The notes: a model not told the origin generated them from the sequence alone. A stretch of DNA of 53,837 nt from an uncultured Eubacteriales bacterium (GCA_964445575.1 CAYULB010000004.1:21631-75467); one strand, 5' to 3'. Positions 7,952 through 53,761 are shown, counted from the stretch's first letter. Translations and numbers: made by a program.

Positions 7952-9556
7952 ATGTTTGACCTTTACAGGAAAGCCCAAAAAAAGAATGTATCAAACTTAT
8001 CCTGTCTGACTCTTGTTCTCATTTTGACTCTGCTCCCTTTATTTTTCTTTCATGGATGCAGAGGAAAATCTTATAAAAAGAACCAAAAATTTTATGTTAT
8101 GGAAGCGACCATTGAGGATATTCACAACGCCTATATGTCTGGAGAGCTGACCTGCCTGGAACTGGTTCAGGCCTATTTGGACCGGATCAATAAATACGAT
8201 AAGGATAAAAAACTAAATTCCATTGTGACCATCAACCCCAATGCTTTGACCAGAGCTGCGGAGCTGGACAAAGAGCTTGAGGAAACAAAAAATCTGCGCC
8301 CTCTCCACGGTATACCCGTCATTATTAAAGATAACTACGAAACCCATGACCTTCAGACCACGGCAGGCTCAGAAGCGCTGGAAGGTTTCATTCCCCCTGA
8401 TGATGCCTATCAGGTCAAAGCTCTGCGCGAGGCCGGGGCCATTGTTCTGGCTAAATCAAACATGGCTGAATGGGCGTTCAGTCCTTATGAAACCGTAAGC
8501 TCCATACTGGGGATAACCCGAAATCCCTATGACCTGTCCCGGGTTCCGGCTGGTTCCAGCGGAGGAACCGCTGCGGCTGTGACTGCAAACTTTGGAACAG
8601 TAGGGCTTGGAACGGATACTGGAAATTCCATCCGGGGGCCTTCAGCCCACTGTTGCCTGGTAGGAATCCGCTCCACCATGGGACTGACCAGCAGGGATGG
8701 AATCATTCCCCTTTATTTAAGGAATGACATCGGAGGGCCCATGACTCGGACCGTGGAGGATGCAGCCCGGGTTCTGGACGTGATTTCAGGATATGACCCT
8801 GCAGATCCTATCACAGAACAGAGCAGAGGAAAAATTCCTGAAACCTATCTGGACTTTTTGGATAAAGACGGACTTCAAGGAGCCAGAATCGGGGTGTTCC
8901 GGGTATTGGCTGATCGGGCCTCCTCAGACCCAAAGGTCAAAACTGTTTTTGAAAAAGCGCTCCAGGACATAAAGGGCCAGGGTGCTGAAATCATCGATCC
9001 TTTTGATATTCCTGACTTTGGAAAGCTGACCAAAAACCTGTGGTGCGATACCTTCCGCCACGACCTTAATCAGTATCTGGCTTCACTGGGAGACAAGGCA
9101 CCTTTCAAAAACCTGATAGAAATCTATAATTCCGGAAAGTTTCTCAGGTCTGTCCGTGAAAGAATTGAAAAAGCCCTGGAAGTGCCTTTAACCGGTGAAC
9201 TTCCCTGCAGGGACCTTTATCATGAGCCCCGCAACATTAAGTTTAGAGAAGCTGTGCTCAAGGCCATGGAAGACCAGAATGTAGATGTTTTTGTCTACCC
9301 CACATGGGGCAATCCGCCCCGGAAGCTGGGGGATATGAGAAGCCCGGCTGGAGACAACAGCCAGTTAATCCCTCCCCACACCGGACTTCCCGCCATCACT
9401 GTTCCCATGGGCTACACCTATAAAAAACTCCCCGCCGGGATTCAAATGGTGGGGAAATTATGGGGAGAACCCGAACTCATCAAAACCGCTTATGCCTATG
9501 AACAGGCAACCCAGCACCGGCGGCCTCCTTCCGAGTTCCCGGAAATAAAAAAATAA
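7952..9556 (+). CDS. Amidase signature family protein, probably exported/lipoprotein
   Basis: [27 protein letters not shown] (Ser-cisSer-Lys triad); N-terminal hydrophobic segment ending in GC. Confidence 0.9.
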
Positions 9557-41011: not shown

Positions 41012-41557
41012 TCAGCTTCCTTTCTGTTTTTTGCCAAAAGCAAATAATCCCCCGGCCTGATAAATTTCTCTCTGAACCGGACTCATAGGCTCCAGTCCAA
41101 AGTCCTGATTTTGTGAGAGATTTTTTGCCTTCCCGCTCTTCAGGTTAACCTCTGCTTTATCTCCGGTATTGAGAATTCCTTTTCCGGCCAGCTCCTCGAT
41201 TCCAGAATATTTTAAAACCGGAAAACCTGAATTCACTGCATTCCTGAAATATATGGCACCGAAGGAGTGAGCCATGATCAGGCTTATTTTCAGGGCAGCA
41301 AAGCAGTCCACAGCCTGCTGTCTGGATGAGCCGGCACCAAAATTTCTTCCCGCCACCAGCATATCCCCTGGCTTGGCTTTGGATGAGAAATCCTTCCATC
41401 CCTCCAGGTTTCCCAAAGCATACCGGCCCATCTCTGAAACCTCAGTTATATGAAGATAAGCGTTGTGATAGATCTGATCGGTATCAATATCTTCAATCAG
41501 CTTCCCGCTCTCATCTTTTAACACCCACAATCTTCCTCGAAAAACAAATTCACTCAT
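41012..41557 (-). CDS. LeuD/HacB-type dehydratase small subunit (pair 2)
   Basis: DIDTDQI, AGRNFGAGSSRQQA, IYFRNAVNSG, AGGL. Confidence 0.85.
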   Translation of the reverse strand: MSEFVFRGRLWVLKDESGKLIEDIDTDQIYHNAYLHITEVSEMGRYALGNLEGWKDFSSKAKPGDMLVAGRNFGAGSSRQQAVDCFAALKISLIMAHSFGAIYFRNAVNSGFPVLKYSGIEELAGKGILNTGDKAEVNLKSGKAKNLSQNQDFGLEPMSPVQREIYQAGGLFAFGKKQKGS

Positions 41558-42808
41558 CTATAGATCCTCCGGACCGGCAATCCTTCCCAGCACACAGGAG
41601 GCGGCCACCACCTGAGGACTCGCCAGATAATTTTTTCCTTTTCCCTGTTTTCCAGCAAAGTTTCGGTTTCCTGTGCTGATCTGGGTTTCCCCTTTCCCGG
41701 TTAATCCTATATGGCCTTCAGCACACCCCCCACATCCAGGATTGCTGACCACAGCTCCGCTTTCAAAAAGCAGGTCTAAAATCCCTTGTTTTAAAATCTC
41801 GGAATACACTTTCCGGGTAGCAGGAACTATTTTTAATACCACTTCTTGCTTGACCTTTCTCCCTCTGAGCACCTCAGCCGCAGCTCTCAAATCCTCGGTG
41901 CGGCCGTTGGTGCAGGAACCAATAAATCCTGAATCAATCCGGACATTCCTTAAGTCCTTGACATCTTTGACATTGGTAGGCTGAAAAGGAACTGCTGCTT
42001 TAGGGGTGAGTTCAGATACATCGATTTCAATCACTTCCGAATACTGAGCTTTCTCATCCGCCTGAACAGGCACGTACTTTATCCCGGCTAACGATTCCAT
42101 CTCTTTTAAAAATCCCTGGTTCACCTCAGGAATAAAACCAATGATACCAGCCATCTCAGTCACCATGCTGCACAGGGTTATGCGGCCTGACAAGGAAAGG
42201 GTTCTGACCGGTTCCCCGTAGAATTCTATGGCTTTGAGGGCGGCGGCTCGAGTCCCCAGCTTACTGAGGATGAATAAAGTCAAATCCTTGGCTGAGGCAG
42301 ACGGTTTGACCTTTCCTTTTAGAATAACTTTGACAGTCTCAGGGACTTCAAACCAGGTCCTGCCGGTTTTAAAGGCAAAGGTGATGTCCACATCTCCCAT
42401 ACCCTGGCCAAAACTCCCCACCGCCCCCAGTATATTCAAGTGGCTGTCCGTGCCCACCACTGTGCTCCCCGGAACTGCATGACCCTTTTCTATGAGAACA
42501 TGAGAGCCGATTCCCTCATCCACATCATACACCCTGATTCCTTTTTTCCGGGCAAACTCACGGCATATCTGCTGATTATCCGCATATTTTATAGAACAGG
42601 CAGGCACCGAGAGGTCAAAGGTAAAAAATGTCTTATTGCTGTCCTCAACCGGTTCATCTCCATATTCTCGCTGAAAATTCTTCACCACATTGGGACCGCC
42701 GAAATCCCGGGCTGAGCGCACATCCAGAGTCATCCATACTATGCGTCCTGGCCGGACCTGCTGCTGGGTGTGGCCGCGGATGATTTTTTCAATAACCGTC
42801 AAATTCAT
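41558..42808 (-). CDS. LeuC/HacA-type aconitase-family large subunit (pair 2)
   Basis: GTDSH, GSCTNGR, PGCGGC, STGNRNFAG, LASP. Confidence 0.88.
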   Translation of the reverse strand: MNLTVIEKIIRGHTQQQVRPGRIVWMTLDVRSARDFGGPNVVKNFQREYGDEPVEDSNKTFFTFDLSVPACSIKYADNQQICREFARKKGIRVYDVDEGIGSHVLIEKGHAVPGSTVVGTDSHLNILGAVGSFGQGMGDVDITFAFKTGRTWFEVPETVKVILKGKVKPSASAKDLTLFILSKLGTRAAALKAIEFYGEPVRTLSLSGRITLCSMVTEMAGIIGFIPEVNQGFLKEMESLAGIKYVPVQADEKAQYSEVIEIDVSELTPKAAVPFQPTNVKDVKDLRNVRIDSGFIGSCTNGRTEDLRAAAEVLRGRKVKQEVVLKIVPATRKVYSEILKQGILDLLFESGAVVSNPGCGGCAEGHIGLTGKGETQISTGNRNFAGKQGKGKNYLASPQVVAASCVLGRIAGPEDL

Positions 42809-43010: not shown

Positions 43011-43589
43011 ATGAAACCGCTGTCCCCAACTGATTATGAACTCGTACAACAGGTAGCCCAAAAAGACCTTCAGGCTTTTCAGAAATTGGTCCATCGCTAC
43101 AAGCGTATGGTAACCAATGTTTGCTTACGCCTTACTGGAGACAGGGAGAATGCCGAGGATGTAGCTCAGGAAGTATTTTTTAGGATCTATCAGAAAGCCA
43201 AGACTTTTCACGGCAGAAGCAAACCATCAACATGGATTTATCAGATTGCTGTAAACTGTTCTCTCAATTATCTGAGAAAGCAAAAAAAGTCTAATCCCGA
43301 AAAATCTCCTTTTGCTTTCCCAGAGGACCCGCATAAAGTCCCGGCGCCCCCTCATATTTCTCCAGATAAAGCTCTGGAACATAAAGAGGATAGGCAGCTG
43401 ATCCAAAAAGCTCTTGACTCACTCCCCTTAAAACAGAGAACAGCTTTTATTCTTCATCACTGGGAGGGTCTTTCTTATCAGGAAATTGCTGATATTCTTA
43501 AATCATCACTTCCTGCTGTGGAATCCAGAATTCACCGTGCAAAGCGCTCTTTAAAGGATGCGCTCCTTTTTATGGTGAAAAAAAAATAA
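43011..43589 (+). CDS. ECF RNA polymerase sigma factor
   Basis: AEDVAQEVF, STWIYQIAVN (region 2); LSYQEIADIL..VESRIHRA (region 4). Confidence 0.93.
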   Translation: MKPLSPTDYELVQQVAQKDLQAFQKLVHRYKRMVTNVCLRLTGDRENAEDVAQEVFFRIYQKAKTFHGRSKPSTWIYQIAVNCSLNYLRKQKKSNPEKSPFAFPEDPHKVPAPPHISPDKALEHKEDRQLIQKALDSLPLKQRTAFILHHWEGLSYQEIADILKSSLPAVESRIHRAKRSLKDALLFMVKKK

Positions 43590-43595
43590 ATCAAA

Positions 43596-43624
43596 CGCAA
43601 GTTTTTTTGAATACTTGTGTCTAA
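43596..43624 (+). promoter_or_regulatory. Possible ECF-dependent promoter before the anti-sigma gene
   Basis: CGCAAG-N16-TGTCTAA in the 56-nt intergenic gap; bipartite ECF-like appearance only. Confidence 0.3.
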
Positions 43625-43645
43625 TCAAATGGAGAGGAAATTAAA

Positions 43646-44125
43646 ATGAAAAACAGGAAGCTTTGCCGGCAGGTCAAAATCCACCTGCCGGATATTGTGG
43701 AACCATCGTCCGATTTGCCTCAAAAAGAGTTCCTTCTATCTCATGTCAAATCCTGTCCCGACTGTCTTAACCTGGTTAATGAATTTTCAAGGTTATGGAG
43801 ACAGCTTGAATCCCCCCCTGAGATAGAACCTTCTCCAGACTTCTCTCAAAGAGCCGTTAAAATGATTGAAGAACATGAAGCCACAAAATTTCGCCCAGGA
43901 ACCGTTTTGACAAGATTAAGACCTTTACTCAAGGCTCTTCCTGCTGCGGCACTCATTGTCTTGGCTGGACTGATCGGTAACTTCCTGGGAGGGGGAGATA
44001 CTGAAATAAAGAAAGACTTCTCTCGGGAATTTGTGACTGAATACTTCAATAATCTTGATGAGATCCCTTCGGGTTCTTTTGCTGACGCCTATCTTTATTT
44101 AGACCAAGGAAAAAGGAGGAATTGA
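43646..44125 (+). CDS. Zinc-binding (ZAS) transmembrane anti-sigma factor
   Basis: HVKSCPDC (HxxxCxxC), one TM helix, downstream of the ECF sigma. Confidence 0.85.
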   Translation: MKNRKLCRQVKIHLPDIVEPSSDLPQKEFLLSHVKSCPDCLNLVNEFSRLWRQLESPPEIEPSPDFSQRAVKMIEEHEATKFRPGTVLTRLRPLLKALPAAALIVLAGLIGNFLGGGDTEIKKDFSREFVTEYFNNLDEIPSGSFADAYLYLDQGKRRN

Positions 44126-44682
44126 AAGTGAAAGCAAAAAATAAACTCATGACTTACGGGCTTGTTTTCCTGATTGCTGTTAACATAACCGCTCTTTTGA
44201 CCTTGGCTTATAACCGGCTGTACATCCAAGAAAAGCAGCCTCCAGAAGCAGACCCTGCCCGCGCAGTAGAGGCTGTAAAAAAAGAACTCCAGCTCACTCC
44301 TCAGCAGACTCACAAAATGATCGACACGCGCAACTCCTATCAAGAACAAATCCAACCTGAGATGCTGAAAATTCAGGAAAAAAAGAGAATTCTTTTTGAG
44401 GAAATAACGAAAGATAACCCGGACCTAGCCCTCATCAACAGTTACATCGATGAAATAAGCCATCTTCAAGCCGAGATACAAAAAAAGGCAGTAAAGAATC
44501 TTCTCAAGGAAAAGTCCATTCTCAACAAGAACCAGCAGAAGCATTATTTCTCTCTATGCGAACAGCATGTCTGCGGACAAGGAAAGGGGCTGTCTCATTC
44601 CCATGGAAAATCTTCTCCAGAAAAAGAGAAGATGGAAAACAAAGAAAGCCCCACATGTTTCAATAAAATCTTAGATCATTAA
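44122..44682 (+). CDS. Spy/CpxP-like periplasmic (heavy-metal sensor type) protein
   Basis: N-terminal TM anchor, LQLTPQQ and ILNKNQQ LTxxQ-type motifs. Confidence 0.75.
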   Translation: MKVKAKNKLMTYGLVFLIAVNITALLTLAYNRLYIQEKQPPEADPARAVEAVKKELQLTPQQTHKMIDTRNSYQEQIQPEMLKIQEKKRILFEEITKDNPDLALINSYIDEISHLQAEIQKKAVKNLLKEKSILNKNQQKHYFSLCEQHVCGQGKGLSHSHGKSSPEKEKMENKESPTCFNKILDH

Positions 44683-44706
44683 AGAAAATTATTAGGGAGG
44701 TCAAAA

Positions 44707-45246
44707 ATGAAAAATGTTAGATTGTTTATCCTAGGAATACTGGTGCTATCACTGGCGGCTTCTATGCCTCTTATGTCTCAAAAGGCTTCTGAAAAACCCA
44801 TGATGCATCAGAAAATGACTCAAGAAATGTCATGCCAAAACCAGCTGAACCTGACTGAAGAACAGCAGGAAAAAATCCAGAAAATGAAGCTTCAGCATCA
44901 AAAAGAAATGCTCGCCCTCCAAACAGAACTCAAGACCAAAAAACTGGACCTTCGCGCACTCAAAACAGAAAAAGCTGATTCAGCTACGATCAATGCGAAG
45001 ATCGACGAGATTGCTGAGGCTCAGGCAGCCATCCAGAAAAAAGCCTTTGCTCACCACATGGAAATAAGAAACATCCTGACAGATGAACAGAAGGAAATCT
45101 TTGATAAAATGCCTCACTCTTGCGGAATGACCCTAGGGGTCGGTTTCATGAGTCATGGACACGGTTCCAGCTGCAGGAGTCACTCCCATTCTGGAATGCA
45201 CAACACTCAAGGAATGAAGCATTCAGGCACAGCCCACAAGAAGTGA
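44707..45246 (+). CDS. Spy/CpxP/ZraP-like periplasmic protein with His/Met-rich termini
   Basis: Signal peptide, LNLTEEQ and ILTDEQ motifs, HGHG..HSH..H tail. Confidence 0.8.
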   Translation: MKNVRLFILGILVLSLAASMPLMSQKASEKPMMHQKMTQEMSCQNQLNLTEEQQEKIQKMKLQHQKEMLALQTELKTKKLDLRALKTEKADSATINAKIDEIAEAQAAIQKKAFAHHMEIRNILTDEQKEIFDKMPHSCGMTLGVGFMSHGHGSSCRSHSHSGMHNTQGMKHSGTAHKK

Positions 45247-45312: not shown

Positions 45313-46428
45313 CTACAGCTTCTCTGCCACTGCCTGGGCGACATCTAAAGTAGAAGAGATGCCGCCCAGGTCATAGGCTCTCACTTTCCCTTCACGGATC
45401 ACTTCGGCCACAGCTTTCTCCAACCTGGCTGCTTTTTCATCCTCGCCCAGCCAATCAAACATCATTTTTACAGCCAAAAGCATGGCCGTGGGATTCACTC
45501 TATACATGCCAGTGTATTTAGGAGCTGAGCCATGGGTAGGTTCAAACACAGCATAGTCATCGCCTATATTTCCACTGCAGGCAAATCCAAGACCGCCCAC
45601 TAACTGCGCAGAAAGGTCAGAAATAATATCTCCGAACAGATTCTCTGCCACCAGAACCGAATAATCTTGAGGATTTTTCACCAGCCACATAGCCATAGCA
45701 TCCACATTGGTCTCCCAAAACTCCACATCAGAATATTCCTTAGCGATTTTTCGTGCGATATCCAGGATAAAACCACCAGTCTCTCTTAAAACATTGGGTT
45801 TTTCCACTATAGTCACAGACTTTCTTTTGTTTTCTCTGGCATAGTCAAAAGCTTTTCTCACAATCCGGGTGCAGGCTTTTCGAGTCATGATGCGGGTGGA
45901 CACTGCCATATCATCATTGGGTACATCCATAAATTTTTTCATTTTGGGATGGATAGAAAAGGCATTTTTTATTTCTTCGGGAATGGGATGCCATTCCACC
46001 CCAGCATACATTCCCTCGGTATTTTCACGAAAAATAACCAGATCAATGTCATCGCGGTAGTTTAAGGGATTTCCGGGATAAGCCTTGCAGGGCCTTAAAT
46101 TGGTAAAAAGGTCAAACTCCTGCCTCAGCCGGACAATCGGGCTGAAATAGACAAATCCCTTTCCTTTTAATGAAGGATCCAGTTCTTTGTCTGCATCCTC
46201 TTTGGGTTTGGAAGTGATGGCCCCAAAAAGACAGGCGTCTGTGTCTTTTAAAAGTTTAACGGTCCTCTCCGGAAGAGGATTTCCTTCTCTGCACCAGAAC
46301 TCCCACCCAATATCCCCTTCCACATATTCTGCATCAAACTCGATTTTTTTCAGCACTATCATGGCTGCTTCCATCACATCTTTTCCTACTCCGTCACCGG
46401 GAAGCACTGCGATTTTATATTTGGCCAT
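45313..46428 (-). CDS. Isocitrate/isopropylmalate/homoisocitrate dehydrogenase family protein
   Basis: LPGDGVG, NLRP, RENTEGMY, ENLFGDIISD, FEPTHGSAP; AGGAGG RBS. Confidence 0.92.
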   Translation of the reverse strand: MAKYKIAVLPGDGVGKDVMEAAMIVLKKIEFDAEYVEGDIGWEFWCREGNPLPERTVKLLKDTDACLFGAITSKPKEDADKELDPSLKGKGFVYFSPIVRLRQEFDLFTNLRPCKAYPGNPLNYRDDIDLVIFRENTEGMYAGVEWHPIPEEIKNAFSIHPKMKKFMDVPNDDMAVSTRIMTRKACTRIVRKAFDYARENKRKSVTIVEKPNVLRETGGFILDIARKIAKEYSDVEFWETNVDAMAMWLVKNPQDYSVLVAENLFGDIISDLSAQLVGGLGFACSGNIGDDYAVFEPTHGSAPKYTGMYRVNPTAMLLAVKMMFDWLGEDEKAARLEKAVAEVIREGKVRAYDLGGISSTLDVAQAVAEKL

Positions 46429-46459
46429 AGCCTCCTCCTTTTTTTGACATAACTTTTAT

Positions 46460-46508
46460 CATTCGCCATTTACCATTCACAATTTACCATTTCTCATTCA
46501 CAATTTAC
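46460..46508. repeat. Degenerate heptamer tandem repeat (7 units)
   Basis: CATTCGC CATTTAC CATTCAC AATTTAC CATTTCT CATTCAC AATTTAC. Confidence 0.75.
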
Positions 46509-47005
46509 TGTTTGCTTTTTTCTTTTAACTCATTTTTTGTATAAGGTATCAGTCCTCCGGCATCCAGGATCCTCTTTACAGAATCGGGAAGAGGTTGGAA
46601 GGAAATTCTCCCGCTCCTTGTGATAATCTCATTTTTTCCCCAGTCAATCCCTGCTTCCTCTCCCTTTTTCAATGTATCGGCTGCTTTTTCTGAAATAACC
46701 ACCGGAAGACCCTGGTTGATAGCATTTCTGAAAAATATCCGGGCAAATGATTTGGCTATCACTGCCTGAACACCAGCGTATTTGAGACAGGATGCAGCCT
46801 GCTCCCTCGAACTTCCGCAGCCAAAATTCTTCCCCGCCACAATCACATCCCCTGGCTTGACCTGAGAAGCAAACTCAGGGTCTAAATCCTCCAGGGCATG
46901 CGAGGCCATCTCCTCTTCATCCATGGGCGTGTAAGTATATTTCCCAGGAAAGATCACATCTGTATTAATGTCATTCCCGTATTTCCATACTTTTCCTTTT
47001 TTCAT
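46505..47005 (-). CDS. LeuD/HacB-type dehydratase small subunit (pair 1)
   Basis: [36 protein letters not shown]. Confidence 0.9.
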
Positions 47006-48261
47006 AAGTACTTCCTCGGGTCACATATTTTTCCTTCTAAAGCAGAAGCCGCTACTGTGGCTGGTGAAGCCAGAAAAATCTCTGAATCACGGCTGCCCAT
47101 CCTTCCTCTGAAGTTCCGGTTGGCTGTGCTTAACGCCCTTTCCCCTGGAGCCAGGATTCCCTGGTGAGCTCCCAGGCAGGGACCGCACCCTGGATTTAAA
47201 ATAACACAACCGGCTTCAACAAGAACTTCAATCACCCCCTGCTTCAAGGCTTTGAGGTACTCCTTCCTGGAGGCAGGAACCACCAGCACTCTGACCCCAG
47301 AAGCCACTTTTTTTCCTTTTAAAATAAAGGCCGCGGCTTTGAGGTCCTCCAGTCTTCCGTTGGTGCAGGTGCCTATAAGCCCTTGGTTGAATGTAAGACC
47401 CTCCGCTTCTTGAATAGGCTTAACATTATCCACGGTATGAGGGCAGGCCACCTGAGGTTCGATTCGGGAAAGGTCATATGAGAGCACAGCCTCATAATCG
47501 GCATCTTTATCTGAGTAAACAGGACTTATACTCTCCTCAGTTATGGATTTCAGATATTCCAGCACTGCTTTATCCGGCAAGAAATATCCGTTTTTAGCCC
47601 CCATCTCTGCGGCCATATTACAGAGCACAAACCGAGAAGAAGCACTGAACTTCAAAGCTCCCGCACCAGTAAACTCAACAGCTTTGTAATTTGCTCTGTC
47701 TGCCCCGTGGTCCCCTATGACCTTTAATATCACATCTTTGGGATAAGCTCCGGTCTTTAACTCTCCTTTAAAATCAATCTTTATGGTCTCAGGCACCCGA
47801 AGCCAGATCTCATCTGTAGCCCACACGCTGGCTGCTTCTGTCCTTCCAATACCCGCAGAAAACGCTCCCAGCGAACCATAGCTGGTGGTGTGCGAATCTG
47901 ATCCCACCACCAGTTTTCCAGGCAAAGCAAATCCCTGCTCCGTGAACACCTGATGGCAGATACCGTTATTGATATCAAAGAAATGGACGATTCCCTGCTC
48001 TGTGACAAATTCCCTTATTTCCTTGTGATTCTGGGCATACTTTTCTGAAGAAGCAGGTGTGACGTGGTCCAGAACAATCACGATTTTTTCAGGAGCTCTG
48101 ATTCTGCTCACTCCAAACTGCCTGAACTTTTTGATAATGGCCGCGGAATTGTCATGAGAAAGCACATAATCCGGCGAAACAATGACTATATCGCCGGCCC
48201 GCACATCTCTTCCGCTTTTTAAGGACAGCAGTTTTTCAGAAAAAGTCTTTCCCGTTTTCAT
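47002..48261 (-). CDS. LeuC/HacA-type aconitase-family large subunit (pair 1)
   Basis: DH, GICHQ, GSDSHT, GTCTNGR, PGCGPCLG, NRNFRGRMG. Confidence 0.92.
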   Translation of the reverse strand: MKTGKTFSEKLLSLKSGRDVRAGDIVIVSPDYVLSHDNSAAIIKKFRQFGVSRIRAPEKIVIVLDHVTPASSEKYAQNHKEIREFVTEQGIVHFFDINNGICHQVFTEQGFALPGKLVVGSDSHTTSYGSLGAFSAGIGRTEAASVWATDEIWLRVPETIKIDFKGELKTGAYPKDVILKVIGDHGADRANYKAVEFTGAGALKFSASSRFVLCNMAAEMGAKNGYFLPDKAVLEYLKSITEESISPVYSDKDADYEAVLSYDLSRIEPQVACPHTVDNVKPIQEAEGLTFNQGLIGTCTNGRLEDLKAAAFILKGKKVASGVRVLVVPASRKEYLKALKQGVIEVLVEAGCVILNPGCGPCLGAHQGILAPGERALSTANRNFRGRMGSRDSEIFLASPATVAASALEGKICDPRKYL

Positions 48262-48273
48262 GGATTATCCCCG

Positions 48274-48807
48274 CTAAATCTTTAAACTCTCAAAATTGAC
48301 AAAGTCCGCATGATTCACGATCACAGCCTCCACTGTTTTCCTGGCCCCATCCCCTTCCTTGGAATGGGCTGCAATGATATGAAGCACTTTATCCGGCACA
48401 TCAAACCTGCTGGCAAAAGCAGCCCCGGAGATGGGATGCCGCAGAAGCTCTCCTTCCCTGCTTTTAACAAACTTTCCCTCTTTTTTTTTATACTCAAAAA
48501 GTTTTCCCACATCATGGAGAAGAGCACCCGAGAGGAGAACATCTTTATCTATCGAGATGTGCTCTTTGTATTTTTCTAAAAGCACATCCGCAATCCTTAT
48601 GGAGCAAAGAGTGACCGTCCGAGTATGTTTGATGATATTCACAGGTGTGTTTTCTATCAAAAGAGTAAACGGCATCTCTTCCAGGTCTTCAGCTTCCCAT
48701 TTTCCCTTTTCCATGGCTTTGCGCCAGACTTCAATAGTGGTCTCCCTGAGCTTTTTGTCCTGGATCATTTGAAATTCCGGCATCAAAGACAGCAGTTTTT
48801 TGGCCAT
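48274..48807 (-). CDS. HD-domain metal-dependent phosphohydrolase
   Basis: H...LLHDVGK...RH...AH...HAD motif order. Confidence 0.85.
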   Translation of the reverse strand: MAKKLLSLMPEFQMIQDKKLRETTIEVWRKAMEKGKWEAEDLEEMPFTLLIENTPVNIIKHTRTVTLCSIRIADVLLEKYKEHISIDKDVLLSGALLHDVGKLFEYKKKEGKFVKSREGELLRHPISGAAFASRFDVPDKVLHIIAAHSKEGDGARKTVEAVIVNHADFVNFESLKI

Positions 48808-49584
48808 TTAAATTTTCCTTTCAGAGGGCCCGTCATATTCAAAGTCTTTGGGATGAATCTTTCTCATGGGTCTCATCCGGCTCTTCTCCTCATGGACGTG
48901 AGCTACCAGCCCGGCAATACGCGATATGATAAAAAAAGCATTCCCGATCTCTGGCGGGAAATCCAAATCGCACAAAAGCGCAGCCATTGCTCCATCCACA
49001 TTTATGGGGAGAGGCTTGCCTATGACTTTTTTCAAACCTTTCTCAACGGCCAGGGCTGTCGTGACATATTCTCCAGCTAATCCCAATTCCCGGGCAAGTT
49101 CAAACAGCCTTTGGGTCCGGGGATCTTTTTGGTGAAGACGGTGTCCAAAACCAGAAGCCCTCTCTTTTCTCTGCTTCATCTCATTTAAAACCTTTGACAC
49201 CGTCTCCCCTAACGACTCTCCGCTTTCTTTCATCTTTTGCTTTATATGGATGAACAGGTTCATCCCCTCTTCAATAGCGCCTCCATGATACCTGGAAATC
49301 GCCAGCACTCCTGCAGCTACTGCTGAATTCAGTTCAGCTCCTGTGGAAGCCACGGTCCTGGCAGTAAGCACAGAGGGAGGACTGGCCCCATGATCTACGG
49401 AAGAGACCAGAATAGCATCCATCAGTTTTCCCTCCTCTGAAGAAGGCATCTCTCCCTTTAACACCAAATAAATAGCCTGAGAAAAAGTAATCTTTCCCAT
49501 TAACTGATCCACAGGATATCCTCTGACCTTAACCTTATTGGGTTCAACTTCAGATATCCCTGTTTTCCAGTGAATCTCACTCAT
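48808..49584 (-). CDS. Citryl-CoA lyase (short citrate-synthase-fold protein)
   Basis: 258 aa; DHGASPPS, HGGA, GFGHRLH..DPR, INVDG. Confidence 0.85.
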   Translation of the reverse strand: MSEIHWKTGISEVEPNKVKVRGYPVDQLMGKITFSQAIYLVLKGEMPSSEEGKLMDAILVSSVDHGASPPSVLTARTVASTGAELNSAVAAGVLAISRYHGGAIEEGMNLFIHIKQKMKESGESLGETVSKVLNEMKQRKERASGFGHRLHQKDPRTQRLFELARELGLAGEYVTTALAVEKGLKKVIGKPLPINVDGAMAALLCDLDFPPEIGNAFFIISRIAGLVAHVHEEKSRMRPMRKIHPKDFEYDGPSERKI

Positions 49585-50492
49585 TTGTTTTTCCCCCTTT
49601 CTTTGAGTAACTGCCCGGCCTTTTTGGGTATGTCAGAAATGGCATCCACCACAAAAACTCCAGCCTGTTTCAGCATCGTGACTTTAGACTCATGAGAGCC
49701 GCGGGAACCTTCCACAATAGCTCCCGCATGAGAGAACCGAGTCCCTGACTTAGCCGCTTTGCCGCCAATGTAAGCCACCACAGGTTTTTTGACACGTCCG
49801 GAGGAAACCAAATCCGCCACTCTTTCTTCTTGAGTGGTTCCGATCTCACCAAACATCACCATCAATTCAGTCTGGTCATCCTCTTCAAAAAGAACCATCA
49901 CTTCAGGGTGAGACAGTCCCACCACAGCATCCCCTCCCACATGAATGATGGTGCTCTGTCCCAAACCAGCTCTGGTCAGATAATAGGAAATGGCTGAAGT
50001 CATGCCCCCGCTTCGGGAGCTCACTCCAACAGAACCTAGCTTAAACCATTCCCGGGCACTTTCTGCTCTTCCTCCGATCATGCCCAGAACCGCTTTCCCC
50101 GGACTTACGAGACCCAGAGTATTAGGCCCCACAAACCGGACTCCCTTATGCTTTGAAAAGCGGGCTATCTCCAGAACATCATTGATGGGCACCCGGTCCG
50201 GAATAAGAACCACCAGCTTCACTCCTGCATCAATGGCTTCCAGAGCTGCATCTTTCACCAGAAAAGCCGGCACAAAAACAACACTGACATCCAATGGCCC
50301 GCATTCTTCCCAGGCCTCTCTTACAGAATCAAACACCGGCACTCCATAGACCTCCTGTCCTCCCTTTCCAGGAGTCACGCCTGCTTTGACCTGGGTCCCA
50401 TAGTCTTTCATCAACCGGGTCCTCACCATTCCCTCACGTCCGGTGATTCCCTGGACCAGGACCTTTGATTTTTCATTAACCAATATGGACAT
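49581..50492 (-). CDS. Succinyl/citryl-CoA synthetase-type alpha (CoA-binding) subunit
   Basis: VQGITGREG, GVTPGKGG, GPNT.G, SRSGG, GEIG, phospho-His motif FSHAGA. Confidence 0.88.
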   Translation of the reverse strand: MSILVNEKSKVLVQGITGREGMVRTRLMKDYGTQVKAGVTPGKGGQEVYGVPVFDSVREAWEECGPLDVSVVFVPAFLVKDAALEAIDAGVKLVVLIPDRVPINDVLEIARFSKHKGVRFVGPNTLGLVSPGKAVLGMIGGRAESAREWFKLGSVGVSSRSGGMTSAISYYLTRAGLGQSTIIHVGGDAVVGLSHPEVMVLFEEDDQTELMVMFGEIGTTQEERVADLVSSGRVKKPVVAYIGGKAAKSGTRFSHAGAIVEGSRGSHESKVTMLKQAGVFVVDAISDIPKKAGQLLKERGKNK

Positions 50493-50494
50493 AT

Positions 50495-52069
50495 TTATTC
50501 TTCACTCTGTTTTTTTTTGTTTTTTATGACTTTTTCTCTATACTCTTTTAATCCCTCAATGGGAAGATGGATATAAACAGCATCCTGCTCATGAAATTTG
50601 CAGAAAATCTCGCAGGCAAGACATTCCGTACATTTTCCCTTCGCAGCATCTTCTCTGGAGATGGAAAGAACCGGCTTTCCCTGTTCAATCTTCAATATAT
50701 TCTGAGAGCAGGCCTCAATGCATCCTTTAGAATCGCATTCTTGACATTTTTCATGATGGATAAAGATTTCTCCGGTGGGCGTTTTAAAAGAATAAGCAAA
50801 GTCTTTAACCTCTGGCTCTTTAATAGGCCTTACTTTGTGGGGAAGAAATTGGCTTTCTGCGATCAATTTCTTCATCCTTTCAGCACAGAACTCGGGTTCA
50901 TCATCCCTTCCATAGGCCTCCACTCTGCCGGGAATATCTTTGAGATAAGTATGAAGGATCTCAATCGCTTTTTCTTCAAAATTGCCCCCCAGACGCAGAA
51001 CAGCCGGCACCTCTATGCGCTCTTCCTCAAAAGCTTTGGTCAGTCCTCTGGCTGAATGAAACTGCTCCTGGCTGGCCACACCAGAGCCTGAGGCAAAATA
51101 GCCTTTGATGTGGGGCTGGGATAAAATGACTTTGGCCGCCCGGTAGACCTTGGAAGCCGAAGGATTCCCGCTGGTATCACAGTAGTTAGCCAGCTTAAAC
51201 CCCCGGTCCAGCACTGCATCCATGGACATCATGCTTCCGCCGCCTCCGGCGCCGTTGAATCCAATAGCATTTTCCTTTTCTTCCATTTCATCCAGCATTT
51301 GGAAAAAGTAAAAAGTGCCCCGGTGGTCGTTTTTTTCTACCAGATAGGCTATCTTTTCCAGCTCTGTAGGCGGCCGGTCAAATTCACGGGCCACCTCGAT
51401 TCCTAAATCCGGATGACGGAACACCGCATAATCGTCCACCACAAAATGGCAGTCTGCCGCATACACACCCCCATCGCGAGCCAGCACCAGAGGATTCATC
51501 TCCGCAGACCGGGCATCATATCTCTGGGATACTTTGTAAAATTTGGCAAGAGTCTGGGAGAGCCGGATAAGAGTTTTCCCGGAAATCCCTGTCCGGCGAA
51601 TCAAGTCCCTGGCTTCAAACTCCCGGAATCCACTCACCACATCCACATAAGCCTTTGCGATTTTATCCGGATGCTTTTTTGCAACCTCCTCAATACCTGT
51701 TCCTCCCATGGTGCTGAAGACTATGACCGGACATTTTTCTGCATCATCGATCACCAATCCAGCAAAATATTCAGACTGGATGTCAATCTTCTTTTCTACC
51801 AGGACCTTCTCTACACACAGATTGTTTATTCTGATTCCCAGCATTTCCTGCGCTGCCTTAAATGCTTCTTCAGGAGAATCAGCGAATTTTATCCCGCCTT
51901 TCTCAGCCCTGCCAGTAGCCCATACCTGGGCTTTAAGCACCACGGATTTCTCAAGCTTTCGGGCTGCCTCTGCTGCTTCTTCAGGAGAAGACACTACCTG
52001 TCCTTCTGGAATAGAGATCCCTTCCTGTTTGAGGAGTTTTTTGCTTTGATATTCAAATAATCTGGCCAT
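50495..52069 (-). CDS. Succinyl/citryl-CoA synthetase-type beta (ATP-grasp) subunit with C-terminal 4Fe-4S domain
   Basis: LFEYQSK, KAQV..GR..KGGI, EMNPL, GAGGG; C-terminal CQECDSKGCIEAC and CTECLACEIFC. Confidence 0.85.
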   Translation of the reverse strand: MARLFEYQSKKLLKQEGISIPEGQVVSSPEEAAEAARKLEKSVVLKAQVWATGRAEKGGIKFADSPEEAFKAAQEMLGIRINNLCVEKVLVEKKIDIQSEYFAGLVIDDAEKCPVIVFSTMGGTGIEEVAKKHPDKIAKAYVDVVSGFREFEARDLIRRTGISGKTLIRLSQTLAKFYKVSQRYDARSAEMNPLVLARDGGVYAADCHFVVDDYAVFRHPDLGIEVAREFDRPPTELEKIAYLVEKNDHRGTFYFFQMLDEMEEKENAIGFNGAGGGGSMMSMDAVLDRGFKLANYCDTSGNPSASKVYRAAKVILSQPHIKGYFASGSGVASQEQFHSARGLTKAFEEERIEVPAVLRLGGNFEEKAIEILHTYLKDIPGRVEAYGRDDEPEFCAERMKKLIAESQFLPHKVRPIKEPEVKDFAYSFKTPTGEIFIHHEKCQECDSKGCIEACSQNILKIEQGKPVLSISREDAAKGKCTECLACEIFCKFHEQDAVYIHLPIEGLKEYREKVIKNKKKQSEE

Positions 52070-52525: not shown

Positions 52526-53719
52526 TTATTTGTTTTTGATGGAGAACCGGTAAGACTTTTTCTCCTCACAGAATCTCTTTAAAAACTCAAGCTCTTCTTC
52601 CACCCAATCCCGGCTCTTAAGGATATTTTTAAGTGAATAAACATCCACCGCACACACCTCATCCCATCTCCCCATTTCCTTTAACGCCGCTTCCAGCTCT
52701 TCTCTCTGTTTTGTGTTTTTCCCGGGAAACAAAGCATCTGTGTATTCACTGACCGAGACTTTTTTCTCAGAACCAAAAACAGTGGAGACCCCCTCTCTCT
52801 CACAAAAAGAAAGCAGGGCTTCCTCCATCTTTTGAAGCTTCTCTTGAGCTTCTTTCTGCTTTTCTTTAAGCTCTTCCTTTATGCGAACATATTCATCCAC
52901 CAGCTTTACTCCCGGGTCATCAAGATACTCATTCTCATCTTTCTCTTTAAGTCCTGCTTCATGCTTCCACTCCGGGCAAATCGTCCTATAGGAACACCAG
53001 TCACAAAGCGCAGAAACTCTGGGGGGGAAATCCTCCTCCTCCTCAATCATTTTGATCTCTTCAATGACCTCTTTTCTCAGCTCTTCAAGCTCCTCATTCG
53101 TCCGGAACGATTCCATCTCCATGTCAAAATTAAGAAAATGCCACACCAGACGGGCTTTTTTAAAGTCTTTAAACTGCTCTTGGACCCATAAGGAATAAAG
53201 GGCAAGCTGCCGGTCTTTATCCAGCTTTTCCTGTTCCATCAAAGAACCACCGGTTTTGTAGTCATGCACTTCATAAAAGCCGTTACCCCGGTACATAAGT
53301 CGGTCTATTCTTATGTGAAACAAATATTTTCCCTCTTTATCAAGGGGCAGAAAACTTTTAGTCTCAAGCCCGATGACACGGCCCTCATCAAAGGGAAAAT
53401 GCCGTTGGTAATAATCTGAAAGCTGTCTCTCCCCCATTCTGCGGTAATTTTCTTCTGTGTAGTCATCCTTGATAACCACCACACTGTCTCCCCATTTCTC
53501 ATGCCAGATTTGTTTGAAGTAGGCTAAAAGTTCATCTAGAGTTAGGAGCTTCTCATGCAGTTTATCCCGGTAAAGCTTTTCCAAAGCCTCATGTACCCGG
53601 GAACCAAGAAAAGCTTCCACTGTCTCAGCTTCTGGTTTGATTCTGTCAATGTAAGCATACTTGTACTGAAGCGGACAGGTCTCATAGGTTCCAATTCTTG
53701 ATATGCTGAAAGCTGACAT
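52526..53719 (-). CDS. PD-(D/E)XK nuclease, Cas4/AddB/RecB-like, with iron-sulfur staple and C-terminal helical extension
   Basis: S.S....Y..CP, G..VH..LE, IDRL, DYKTG, QLALY, CDWCSYRTICP. ATG at 53719 (TTG 53728 is an alternative). Confidence 0.85.
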   Translation of the reverse strand: MSAFSISRIGTYETCPLQYKYAYIDRIKPEAETVEAFLGSRVHEALEKLYRDKLHEKLLTLDELLAYFKQIWHEKWGDSVVVIKDDYTEENYRRMGERQLSDYYQRHFPFDEGRVIGLETKSFLPLDKEGKYLFHIRIDRLMYRGNGFYEVHDYKTGGSLMEQEKLDKDRQLALYSLWVQEQFKDFKKARLVWHFLNFDMEMESFRTNEELEELRKEVIEEIKMIEEEEDFPPRVSALCDWCSYRTICPEWKHEAGLKEKDENEYLDDPGVKLVDEYVRIKEELKEKQKEAQEKLQKMEEALLSFCEREGVSTVFGSEKKVSVSEYTDALFPGKNTKQREELEAALKEMGRWDEVCAVDVYSLKNILKSRDWVEEELEFLKRFCEEKKSYRFSIKNK

Positions 53720-53761
53720 TTTAAACAATCCTTATTGAAACATTTGATTTATCCTTCTCCC

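Follow-up and report, generated by a model that had tools for sequence, protein, structure and literature searches.

A conserved operon of CoA-ligase, citryl-CoA-lyase-like and homoaconitase-type genes as a candidate ATP-coupled homocitrate module

Introduction

On which acid does a set of enzymes act that joins a citrate-cleavage-like CoA ligase and lyase to hydratases and a dehydrogenase resembling those of lysine operons? This question is raised by a run of seven minus-strand open reading frames (ORFs) in a 53,837-nt stretch of DNA from an uncultured Eubacteriales bacterium (GCA_964445575.1, CAYULB010000004.1:21631-75467), hereafter referred to as the window. The genes encode the beta and alpha subunits of a SucCD-like CoA ligase, a lyase, an HD-domain protein, the large and small subunits of an aconitase-family hydratase (LeuC1 and LeuD1, hydratase 1) and a dehydrogenase; a second hydratase (LeuC2 and LeuD2, hydratase 2) is encoded further downstream on the same strand. 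An earlier note on this DNA had proposed a general scheme, in which the chain of a 2-oxoacid is extended or shortened by an ADP-forming CoA ligase acting with a lyase of the citrate-synthase fold, an isomerase of the aconitase family and a beta-decarboxylating dehydrogenase, and all family assignments as well as the conservation across phyla described below fit this scheme. The note had left the substrate open and did not imply autotrophy, which we judge to be right.

Here we propose, with a probability of about 0.5, that the operon encodes an ATP-coupled homocitrate/2-oxoadipate module, i.e. a homocitrate-level analogue of the two-step cleavage of citrate, which could operate in either direction. 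The lyase would interconvert acetyl-CoA plus 2-oxoglutarate and homocitryl-CoA, and the SucCD-like alpha/beta pair would interconvert homocitryl-CoA, ADP and phosphate with homocitrate, CoA and ATP. Hydratases 2 and 1 would then lead from homocitrate via cis-homoaconitate to homoisocitrate, with hydratase 1 as the homoaconitase-type enzyme, and the dehydrogenase would interconvert homoisocitrate and 2-oxoadipate plus CO2. In the forward direction, homocitrate would be made and the thioester energy kept as ATP; in reverse, 2-oxoadipate would yield acetyl-CoA and 2-oxoglutarate, as ATP-citrate lyase (ACL) reverses citrate synthase. Since the CoA-ligase step would be ATP-coupled and near equilibrium, such a module could do what a LeuA-type homocitrate synthase cannot. 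Substrate, direction and all four activities are predicted here from the gene content, conservation, family membership and closest relatives that we observed.

Results

Two homoaconitase-type lineages in one operon position

The one observation that argues most strongly for a homoaconitate-type substrate is that two hydratase lineages, both of the homoaconitase type as judged by model scores and trees, appear to fill one and the same slot of the operon. The first lineage is represented by the window itself. LeuC1 passed the hacA_fam model TIGR01343 (545.9 bits, cut-off 385.7) and is 51-52% identical to the HacA proteins of LysZ/LysK-linked operons in two Chloroflexota genomes (L070 and L071), compared to 47% identity to a leucine-operon LeuC and 38% to LeuC2. 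LeuD1 is 56-57% identical to the small subunits of the same two operons and has the same specificity loop. In the LeuD-type family this loop of the small subunit sets the specificity, as is known from work on Methanocaldococcus enzymes. Both Chloroflexota operons also hold a [LysW]-aminoadipate kinase (370.8 bits, cut-off 223), a LysJ-type transaminase and a homocitrate synthase (TIGR02146, 440.9 bits, cut-off 413.55), and L071 additionally holds a LysK homolog.

The second lineage is found in Planctomycetota and in locus L005, where the hydratase is a single fused protein of 655-699 aa encoded in the same operon slot. The three fused hydratases that were tested (L005, L012 and L013) all passed the homoaconitase model TIGR00139 with 865, 727 and 754 bits, respectively (cut-off 530). 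In a tree of 19 large subunits, the LeuC1 proteins of Aminicenantes and Zixibacteria grouped with the HacA of the Chloroflexota lysine operons (support 84/86), the fused type formed its own clade (100/100) and LeuC2 another (100/100); the resolution of the tree was limited to these groupings.

Besides the type of hydratase 1, the number of hydratases is informative. Of 10 additional genomes of the family, 9 have two hydratase pairs about 3 kb apart on one contig. In the alpha-aminoadipate pathway of fungi and Thermus, the isomerisation of homocitrate requires two enzymes of the aconitase family, to which the two hydratases of the operon would correspond. The loop of LeuD2, YLHIT, is unlike those of three solved small subunits (YLVYT, YLRTT and YNLTK).

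As a side observation, L070 carries three ORFs of 210, 155 and 156 aa without an NCBIfam match (L070:5840-6953 and 8339-8809), which are located between the genes for homocitrate synthase and the homoaconitase subunits.

The dehydrogenase lies outside the isocitrate dehydrogenase group

The dehydrogenase (Iso_dh, 298.4 bits) is, by its sequence features and its position in the tree, a member of a distinct clade outside the isocitrate dehydrogenase (IDH) group and homoisocitrate-dehydrogenase-like. A tree of 21 rows contained a split with 100/100 support, which separated seven IDH-type proteins with an S-x-N motif, including the genome's own IDH, from all others; the other side comprised the clade of the cluster dehydrogenases (100/100), LeuB-type proteins and the dehydrogenases of lysine operons. 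In all ten cluster dehydrogenases the Ser of the S-x-N motif is kept and the Asn replaced by Ile. We take this motif to be the gamma-carboxylate site, corresponding to Ser113 and Asn115 of the E. coli enzyme. The same ten proteins share the sequence GAITSKP, an insertion of about 13 aa and the segment VYFSPIV(R/K)LRQ. The recognition segment Y-F-S-P-I-V therein resembles the Y-[AS]-S-P-V-[VL] of dehydrogenases encoded beside LysX, LysZ or LysK, which read YASPVVALRR in L049 and Y[AS]SPVLGMRK in L070 and L071. Arg85 of the Thermus homoisocitrate dehydrogenase (HICDH), whose role as the recognition residue we presume, aligns with a Val. The best curated model was AksF2_Meth homoisocitrate dehydrogenase (355.6 bits, under its cut-off of 540) and the best IDH model was PRK08997 (295.6 bits versus a cut-off of 510).

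CoA ligase and lyase

Beta matched ATP-grasp_2 (191.7 bits) and Citrate_bind (31.7 bits, cut-off 26.8) in Pfam and scored 261.5 bits against SucC models, which is under the cut-off of 375.55. Its acid-binding domain has the motifs GGGGS and GNP in common with CcsA of Hydrogenobacter thermophilus, where succinyl-CoA synthetases (SCSs) read GAGLAM and GGGA. Among solved chains, beta scored highest against the Thermus SCS (3ufx_B, 260.3 bits), followed by CcsA (6hxq_B, 136.7 bits) and ACL (100.7 bits). A similar picture was obtained for alpha, with CoA_binding at 86.8 bits, SucD models at about 304 bits (below their cut-offs of 336-353.2), the archaeal SCS 2yv2_A at 289.6 bits, CcsB (6hxq_A) at 164.6 bits and ACL at 121.4 bits. 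Since both subunits score higher against SucCD than against CcsAB, they stand outside the CcsAB branch of the Aquificae. They are also distinct from the housekeeping SCS, because beta had no Ligase_CoA match at E ≤ 0.001, a domain that scores 105.2 bits in the SucC encoded on contig C11 of the same genome.

For these reasons we consider it very improbable that the operon merely contains an ordinary SCS, which came to lie beside unrelated leucine-type genes by chance. The likeness of alpha and beta to the SucCD of Thermus and archaea rather than to CcsAB would agree with such an enzyme, but a canonical SucCD pair is encoded on C11 (571 and 463 bits, above the cut-offs), the gene order is conserved across phyla, and alpha and lyase form a single protein in Chloroflexota. 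This fusion, together with the CcsA-like acid site of beta, indicates that ligase and lyase act on one and the same acyl-CoA.

The lyase exceeded the cut-offs of two citryl-CoA lyase models (NF004869, 280.9 bits, cut-off 212; NF004866, 263.7 bits, cut-off 245) and matched the Ccl of H. thermophilus (6hxp_A) with 200.8 bits over residues 5-257, that is over its full length, compared to about 70 bits for solved ACL. Its motifs DHG, HGGA, GHR..DPR, NVD and SRIAG(L)VAH align with those of the citrate synthases of P. furiosus and others and are invariant in all 12 cluster lyases. We take these motifs to hold the catalytic His/His/Asp and the oxaloacetate/citrate-binding His and Arg residues of citrate synthases. 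That the arginine-bearing motifs are kept argues for a dicarboxylic 2-oxoacid; the reaction of citryl-CoA lyases is the cleavage of citryl-CoA to acetyl-CoA plus oxaloacetate, and the sequence cannot tell oxaloacetate from 2-oxoglutarate as the keto-acid. The earlier note had classed ligase and lyase together as citryl-CoA synthetase/lyase-type enzymes; compared by similarity with CcsAB, Ccl and SucCD, this applies to the lyase, which is nearest to the Hydrogenobacter Ccl, and less so to alpha and beta, which are nearer to the SucCD of Thermus and archaea. At somewhat less than even odds, we tentatively propose that the two enzymes are a homocitryl-CoA synthetase and a homocitryl-CoA lyase, which would be the homocitrate counterpart of ACL and would allow the initial half of the aminoadipate pathway to run in both directions.

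Conservation of the gene order across phyla

The earlier note's grouping of these genes was borne out by their co-occurrence in other genomes. With the lyase as query we retrieved 35 loci from several phyla, whose neighbourhoods were compared by tblastn with the window proteins. The order beta-alpha-lyase-HD-hydratase-dehydrogenase was found in nine of them, namely in Aminicenantes (L003 and L004), an unclassified bacterium (L005) and Planctomycetota/Phycisphaerae (L010-L013, L019 and L025), and contig ends interrupt the same order in eight more, including a Zixibacteria contig (L033). The HD gene directly follows the lyase gene in 18 of the 35 loci, most of the remaining ones being cut by contig ends or belonging to other sub-types. 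Alpha is followed by the lyase in the same order in at least 20 loci, with a 4-nt overlap in the window. From this we conclude that the gene arrangement is more than chance. In Chloroflexota (L015-L018 and L023), only beta and an alpha-lyase fusion of 563-588 aa were found (fusion in 3/3 proteins scanned).

We also surveyed 121 genomes of the window's class with a completeness of at least 85%. A lyase ortholog (≥57% identity) was present in 38 of these, with 12/13 genomes in family f1, 3/3 in f3, 2/2 in f4, 6/6 in f5, 5/5 in f6, 3/3 in f10 and 6/6 in f11, and it was not found in the sampled genomes of f7 (0/6), f8 (0/47), f9 (0/4) and f12 (0/1). Among the 24 genomes of family f2 there were only three lyase matches, with 37% identity. 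These stretches (G392:C34:27904-28578, G437:C4:23477-24154 and G432:C1:186879-187538) are located within open frames of 813-971 aa and may represent a fused ACL-like protein of another type.

Some loci carry additional genes. The Planctomycetota clusters have a GNAT (Acetyltransf_3) gene between lyase and HD (L010:2488-3051, L012:10127-10678 and L013:10775-11320). In three Chloroflexota loci (L017:2229-7330, L018:2248-7504 and L023:1924-7666), the beta and alpha-lyase genes are located downstream of a sugar-type ATP-binding cassette transporter (SBP_bac_1 and permeases) and of one or two genes of the ADP-ribosylglycohydrolase family; this context looks catabolic and may indicate where the substrate naturally comes from.

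Canonical enzymes of the host genome

The assembly comprises 2.43 Mb on 104 contigs and is 92.55% complete; beta homologs of 519-532 aa are labelled Aminicenantes or Acidobacteriota, and we treat the host as a member of the Aminicenantes. The earlier note had suggested to check whether citrate synthase, AcnA/B and canonical IDH are missing from this genome, which was not the case. A canonical set is encoded elsewhere, with a citrate (Si)-synthase (689 bits), AcnB (1323 bits), malate dehydrogenase and a fumarase subunit, besides an IDH on C11 that carries an S-C-N motif and the SucCD pair on the same contig. The cluster is therefore not the sole citrate branch of its host. In line with this, an AcnB-size aconitase was present in 10/10 further genomes of the family and a full-length citrate synthase in 16 of 18 cluster-bearing genomes. 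The genome also encodes pyruvate:ferredoxin oxidoreductase (PFOR), two further 2-oxoacid:ferredoxin oxidoreductase alpha subunits and two FrdA/SdhA-like proteins.

With regard to amino acid synthesis, the 92.55%-complete genome gave no match to the HMGL/LeuA family (PF00682), and IlvC (only 29-bit Rossmann matches), IlvD, LysA and LysX were likewise not found in it; DapF is present in two copies. The host probably relies on imported branched-chain amino acids and lysine.

A gene for the large subunit of methylmalonyl-CoA mutase adjoins the cluster of AcnB, IDH, malate dehydrogenase, fumarase and SucCD genes on C11 (L001:1960-3615), which suggests a succinate-propionate route. On contig C16, two tandem 443-aa ORFs without an NCBIfam match (L040:6581-9245), at least one of which has a saccharopine-dehydrogenase-type NADP domain, are flanked by an AmmeMemoRadiSam-B gene and cysS, not far from the second copy of DapF. 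Saccharopine-type lysine genes proved uninformative as a clue to the pathway, with Sacchrp_dh-like genes in 11/11 genomes tested, here beside heat-shock genes.

A gap in a predicted lysine pathway

A different situation was encountered in G005, a genome of the Phycisphaeraceae with the full cluster. It encodes LysX (315 bits, cut-off 276), LysZ (407 bits, cut-off 223), LysK (412 bits, cut-off 363) and an ArgC/LysY-like protein, while neither LysA (114 bits only) nor DapF was found in this assembly, for which no completeness is stated. Its sole HMGL-like gene encodes HMG-CoA lyase, and the aconitase-family and Iso_dh genes outside the cluster are only of AcnA size and IDH-like, respectively. 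Judged from its gene content, no candidate other than the cluster was found for 2-oxoadipate formation in G005, where it would close a gap in the predicted LysW lysine pathway.

Homocitrate, citrate or another acid

Two homoaconitase-type lineages, the identical specificity loop, a dehydrogenase that is not of the IDH type, two conserved hydratases, the redundancy of a citrate module, the gap in G005 and the LeuA-family synthase that was not found together place homocitrate at roughly even odds. Several findings weigh against it. LeuC1 scored below the homoaconitase equivalogs HacA_Meth (457 bits, cut-off 550) and TIGR00139 (322 bits). The dehydrogenase failed all HICDH cut-offs, with AksF_Meth at 304.7 bits (cut-off 500) and LEU3_arch at 331.5 bits (cut-off 409.8) also below; its closest relatives outside the cluster, the dehydrogenases of L070 and L071, share just 41% identity with it, its best solved relative is an NAD-dependent IDH (240 bits versus 237.7 bits for the Thermus HICDH), and both the stretch that surrounds the catalytic Tyr, FRENTEGMYAGVEW, and the insertion behind it are IDH-like. 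The lyase looks like a citrate enzyme, with its citrate-synthase motifs kept and citryl-CoA lyase as its best curated names, and we know of no citrate-synthase-fold enzyme that uses 2-oxoglutarate. Finally, in G380 (identical to G001, 92% complete) no AcnA/B or IDH was found beyond the cluster enzymes, which fits a role in citrate metabolism.

The connection to lysine is uneven as well. A true LysX was found in 26 of 301 Planctomycetota genomes, and the lyase was present in 1 of the 26 LysX-positive genomes (G005) versus 1 of 20 LysX-negative ones. LysA occurs in many of the cluster-bearing families of the window's class (f1 6/13, f3 3/3, f5 5/6, f6 4/5), and four Planctomycetota cluster genomes have it at 437-446 bits. 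In the two Chloroflexota genomes that carry the lysine operons (G010 with the pair in L015 and G013 with the pair in L018), homocitrate synthase and, elsewhere, the beta/alpha-lyase pair are both present, so the pair does not replace homocitrate synthase there. In the window's own genome, where LysA and LysX were not found, no sink or source for 2-oxoadipate is thus identified. An obligatory role in lysine synthesis found no support, as the lyase is about as rare with LysX as without it and LysA is mixed in the cluster-bearing families; from these surveys and the coexistence in G010 and G013 we conclude that the operon does not simply serve lysine synthesis.

These observations have to be weighed for two further substrates. 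A citrate module, which we regard as possible and clearly less probable than one for homocitrate, would consist of a citryl-CoA synthetase and lyase, a two-part aconitase and an IDH, interconverting acetyl-CoA plus oxaloacetate and 2-oxoglutarate. It could run reductively, cleaving citrate, e.g. in glutamate breakdown or as a branch of the reductive tricarboxylic acid (TCA) cycle, or oxidatively with a gain of ATP. The lyase scores, the Ccl match and the kept motifs agree with this, as do the Citrate_bind score and CcsA-like motifs of beta, the lack of other aconitase and IDH genes found in G380, and the PFOR, oxidoreductase and FrdA/SdhA-like genes of the host. The alpha-lyase fusions of Chloroflexota have the architecture of ACL, with no dedicated hydratase or dehydrogenase genes nearby. 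In its section 17, PMC5459899 reads related Planctomycetes genes as citrate cleavage, and an ATP-forming use of ACL has a precedent by the title of Moller et al. 1987, cited in PMC9768450. However, a citrate module would duplicate citrate synthase, AcnB and IDH, both here and in almost every relative examined. Moreover, hydratase 1 and the fused hydratases are of the homoaconitase type, and the dehydrogenase lacks the Asn of S-x-N and falls outside the IDH group. For citrate, a single aconitase-type enzyme normally suffices for the two half-reactions, whereas the operon conserves two hydratases.

More doubtful still is a module for another substrate or a broad range of substrates, either a different 2-hydroxy tricarboxylate or dicarboxylate or an iterative series from 2-oxoglutarate to 2-oxoadipate and longer 2-oxo-dicarboxylates, as in the coenzyme B synthesis of methanogens. 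Hydratase 2 would then be needed for a further round or for another substrate. The hydratases and the dehydrogenase of the window indeed fail every specific equivalog cut-off, the best dehydrogenase model is of the methanogen AksF2 type, the LeuD2 loop is unlike the three solved ones, no 2-oxoadipate sink was found, and the Planctomycetota clusters add a GNAT acetyltransferase. Within this range, leucine or isoleucine synthesis with the ligase and lyase in place of LeuA was rejected: IlvC, IlvD and LeuA were not found in the host genome, the relative G001 has separate leuA, leuC and leuB genes besides the cluster, and the arginine motifs of the lyase point to a dicarboxylic 2-oxoacid. Chemistry excludes 2-methylcitrate, since the tertiary alcohol of 2-methylisocitrate is not oxidisable.

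Ferredoxin-like domain of beta and HD protein

Two parts of the operon have no assigned step in the proposed homocitrate route. The first is a C-terminal domain of beta, which comprises about 90 residues with eight cysteines in the motifs CxxCx4Cx3C and CxxCxxCx3C. The two motifs are spaced as in dicluster [4Fe-4S] bacterial ferredoxins, with weak matches to Fer4 families; unlike these ferredoxins, the domain stays below Pfam gathering (best match Fer4_9, 21.9 bits, cut-off 27), its first motif reads CxxCx4Cx3C, and it forms part of a CoA-ligase subunit. The full set of eight cysteines is present in 9 of the 14 relatives that were aligned (3/3 Aminicenantes rows, L005 and 5/5 Chloroflexota rows). 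The five Planctomycetota rows all have the domain with only one to three of the eight cysteines, and in L030, which encodes a distant 381-aa form of beta, the domain is absent. Since the cysteines were lost in Planctomycetota, catalysis cannot depend on iron-sulfur clusters. The domain is more likely regulatory, sensing redox state or oxygen, or structural than catalytic, as we infer from this pattern. A complex prediction gave no support for docking of the domain on the lyase. Searched alone, the domain matched 120 representative clusters at E ≤ 0.001, some at the C-terminus of proteins of 470-541 aa and many as proteins or fragments of 75-115 aa.

The second is the HD protein (Pfam HD, 53.3 bits, cut-off 22), a member of the HD-domain superfamily of metal-dependent phosphohydrolases. 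Residues H61, D99, K102, H124, H143, H148, H166 and D168 are invariant; the Planctomycetota rows carry an Ala in place of H98, which is the His of the doublet. The AlphaFold2 model (pLDDT 87.5) had the HD domain of YhaM as best fold match (E 1e-5, TM 0.68) and otherwise matched generic HD folds. No specific HD subfamily was recovered: the sequence search of solved structures gave E-values of 0.076 or worse and the Atlas led to unnamed HD clusters.

Extent of the operon and neighbouring genes

The coordinates of all features are given in Table 1. The junctions between the seven ORFs at 45313-52069 amount to +2, -4, 0, +12, -4 and +76 nt in the ORF list of the window, in agreement with the earlier note, which had described seven co-oriented genes with the first six overlapping or at most 12 nt apart. 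LeuC2 and LeuD2 directly follow the dehydrogenase in L003, L004 and L005, and the seven genes together with this pair therefore constitute a nine-gene operon, which is split in this genus. The plus-strand block that separates the dehydrogenase from hydratase 2 in the window encodes an extracytoplasmic function (ECF)-type sigma factor of 192 aa and three proteins of 159, 186 and 179 aa without a family match; the relatives lack this block at that place, which suggests that it was inserted into the operon. Taken as a whole, the interpretation in the earlier note stood in its general pathway scheme, and its proposed check showed the canonical TCA enzymes to be present; the iron-sulfur-type domain, the second hydratase pair, the homoaconitase type of hydratase 1 and the plus-strand block had all been missed.

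Table 1 Features of the operon and the adjoining block in the window. Positions are counted from the first nucleotide of the window.
Feature	Position	Strand	Length	Remarks
Beta, SucC-like with CcsA-like acid-site domain and C-terminal extension	50495-52069	-	524 aa	
Ferredoxin-like domain of beta	50555-50767	-	approx. residues 435-505	Cysteine motifs
Alpha, SucD-like small subunit	49581-50492	-	303 aa	CoA_binding and Ligase_CoA
Citryl-CoA-lyase-family protein, truncated citrate-synthase fold	48808-49584	-	258 aa	
HD-domain protein	48274-48807	-	177 aa	
LeuC1, hydratase 1 large subunit, homoaconitase-type	47002-48261	-	419 aa	Aconitase
LeuD1, hydratase 1 small subunit	46505-47005	-	166 aa	Aconitase_C
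Iso_dh-family beta-decarboxylating dehydrogenase, homoisocitrate-dehydrogenase-like	45313-46428	-	371 aa	
Opposite-strand block, ECF sigma factor and three ORFs	43011-45246	+		Not part of the pathway
LeuC2, hydratase 2 large subunit	41558-42808	-		PRK00402, 429 bits (cut-off 385)
LeuD2, hydratase 2 small subunit	41012-41557	-		LeuD-type; loop DTDQIYHNAYLHIT

Just upstream of the operon, a gene at 52526-53728 on the minus strand encodes a 400-aa PD-(D/E)XK/Cas4-like nuclease (PDDEXK_1, 130.6 bits). Neither the window nor nine related loci contained a riboswitch or other RNA leader at gathering score, and a promoter and terminator scan gave counts at chance level. Among sequencing runs, the stretch was present in four DNA runs of one microbial-mat study, which may be its source, and no RNA run with it was listed.

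Discussion

The operon shares features with three known systems and differs from each of them. Like CcsAB and Ccl of H. thermophilus (6HXQ and 6HXP), it has three separate genes for a SucC-like subunit, a SucD-like subunit and a truncated lyase of the citrate-synthase fold, the lyase matches 6HXP over its full length, and beta shares GGGGS and GNP with CcsA. In contrast to that system, alpha and beta are nearer to SucCD, and the 429-residue CcsA has no room for a ferredoxin-like domain. The operon moreover adds the HD protein, homoaconitase-type hydratases and a dehydrogenase outside the IDH group, its substrate is probably not citrate, and its hosts are not known autotrophs.

To the first half of the alpha-aminoadipate pathway of lysine synthesis, as encoded in L070, L071 and L049, the operon is linked by hydratase 1 (51-57% identity, same loop) and by the S-P-[IV] segment of the dehydrogenase. 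It differs in that a CoA ligase and a lyase stand in place of a LeuA-family homocitrate synthase, that no LysW, LysX, LysZ, LysY, LysJ or LysK genes are located near the operon, with LysX not found in the genome at all, and that the dehydrogenase represents a separate clade with two insertions.

With ACL, including the proposed type II described in section 17 of PMC5459899, the operon has the same three modules in common, and the alpha-lyase proteins of Chloroflexota are fused like AclB/AclA-type subunits; however, the genes are split here, the scores against solved ACL are low, and the ferredoxin-like domain is an extra. The same section places a related trio of Planctomycetes between the CCS/CCL of Aquificae and type II ACL, reads it as reductive-TCA genes and notes fused forms. 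The ligase-lyase trio had thus already been noted in Planctomycetes; no description of the operon, of the fused ferredoxin-like domain or of 'homocitryl-CoA' was found in the searchable literature, whose coverage does not extend to subscription journals.

Based on the sequence comparisons, we regard the enzymes as a separate, uncharacterised family, with what appears to be an iron-sulfur-type domain on beta in most lineages, which usually occurs together with lysine-pathway-type enzymes and alongside a normal citrate synthase, aconitase and IDH. Counts of citrate cleavage may therefore be wrong for Aminicenantes, Phycisphaerae, Zixibacteria and Anaerolineae. Of the 12 families sampled in the window's class, 7 carry the operon almost universally, which makes it a major unknown in abundant sediment bacteria.

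If the substrate is homocitrate, two enzyme activities and a reversible, ATP-coupled step of 2-oxoacid extension would be added to metabolism, and a gap in at least one predicted lysine pathway would be closed. It would then be possible for anaerobes to convert 2-oxoadipate, e.g. from lysine breakdown, by reductive carboxylation and ATP-dependent cleavage into acetyl-CoA and 2-oxoglutarate. Alternatively, they could build 2-oxoadipate while the thioester bond is saved as ATP, which would fit G005 with its LysW pathway without a homocitrate synthase.

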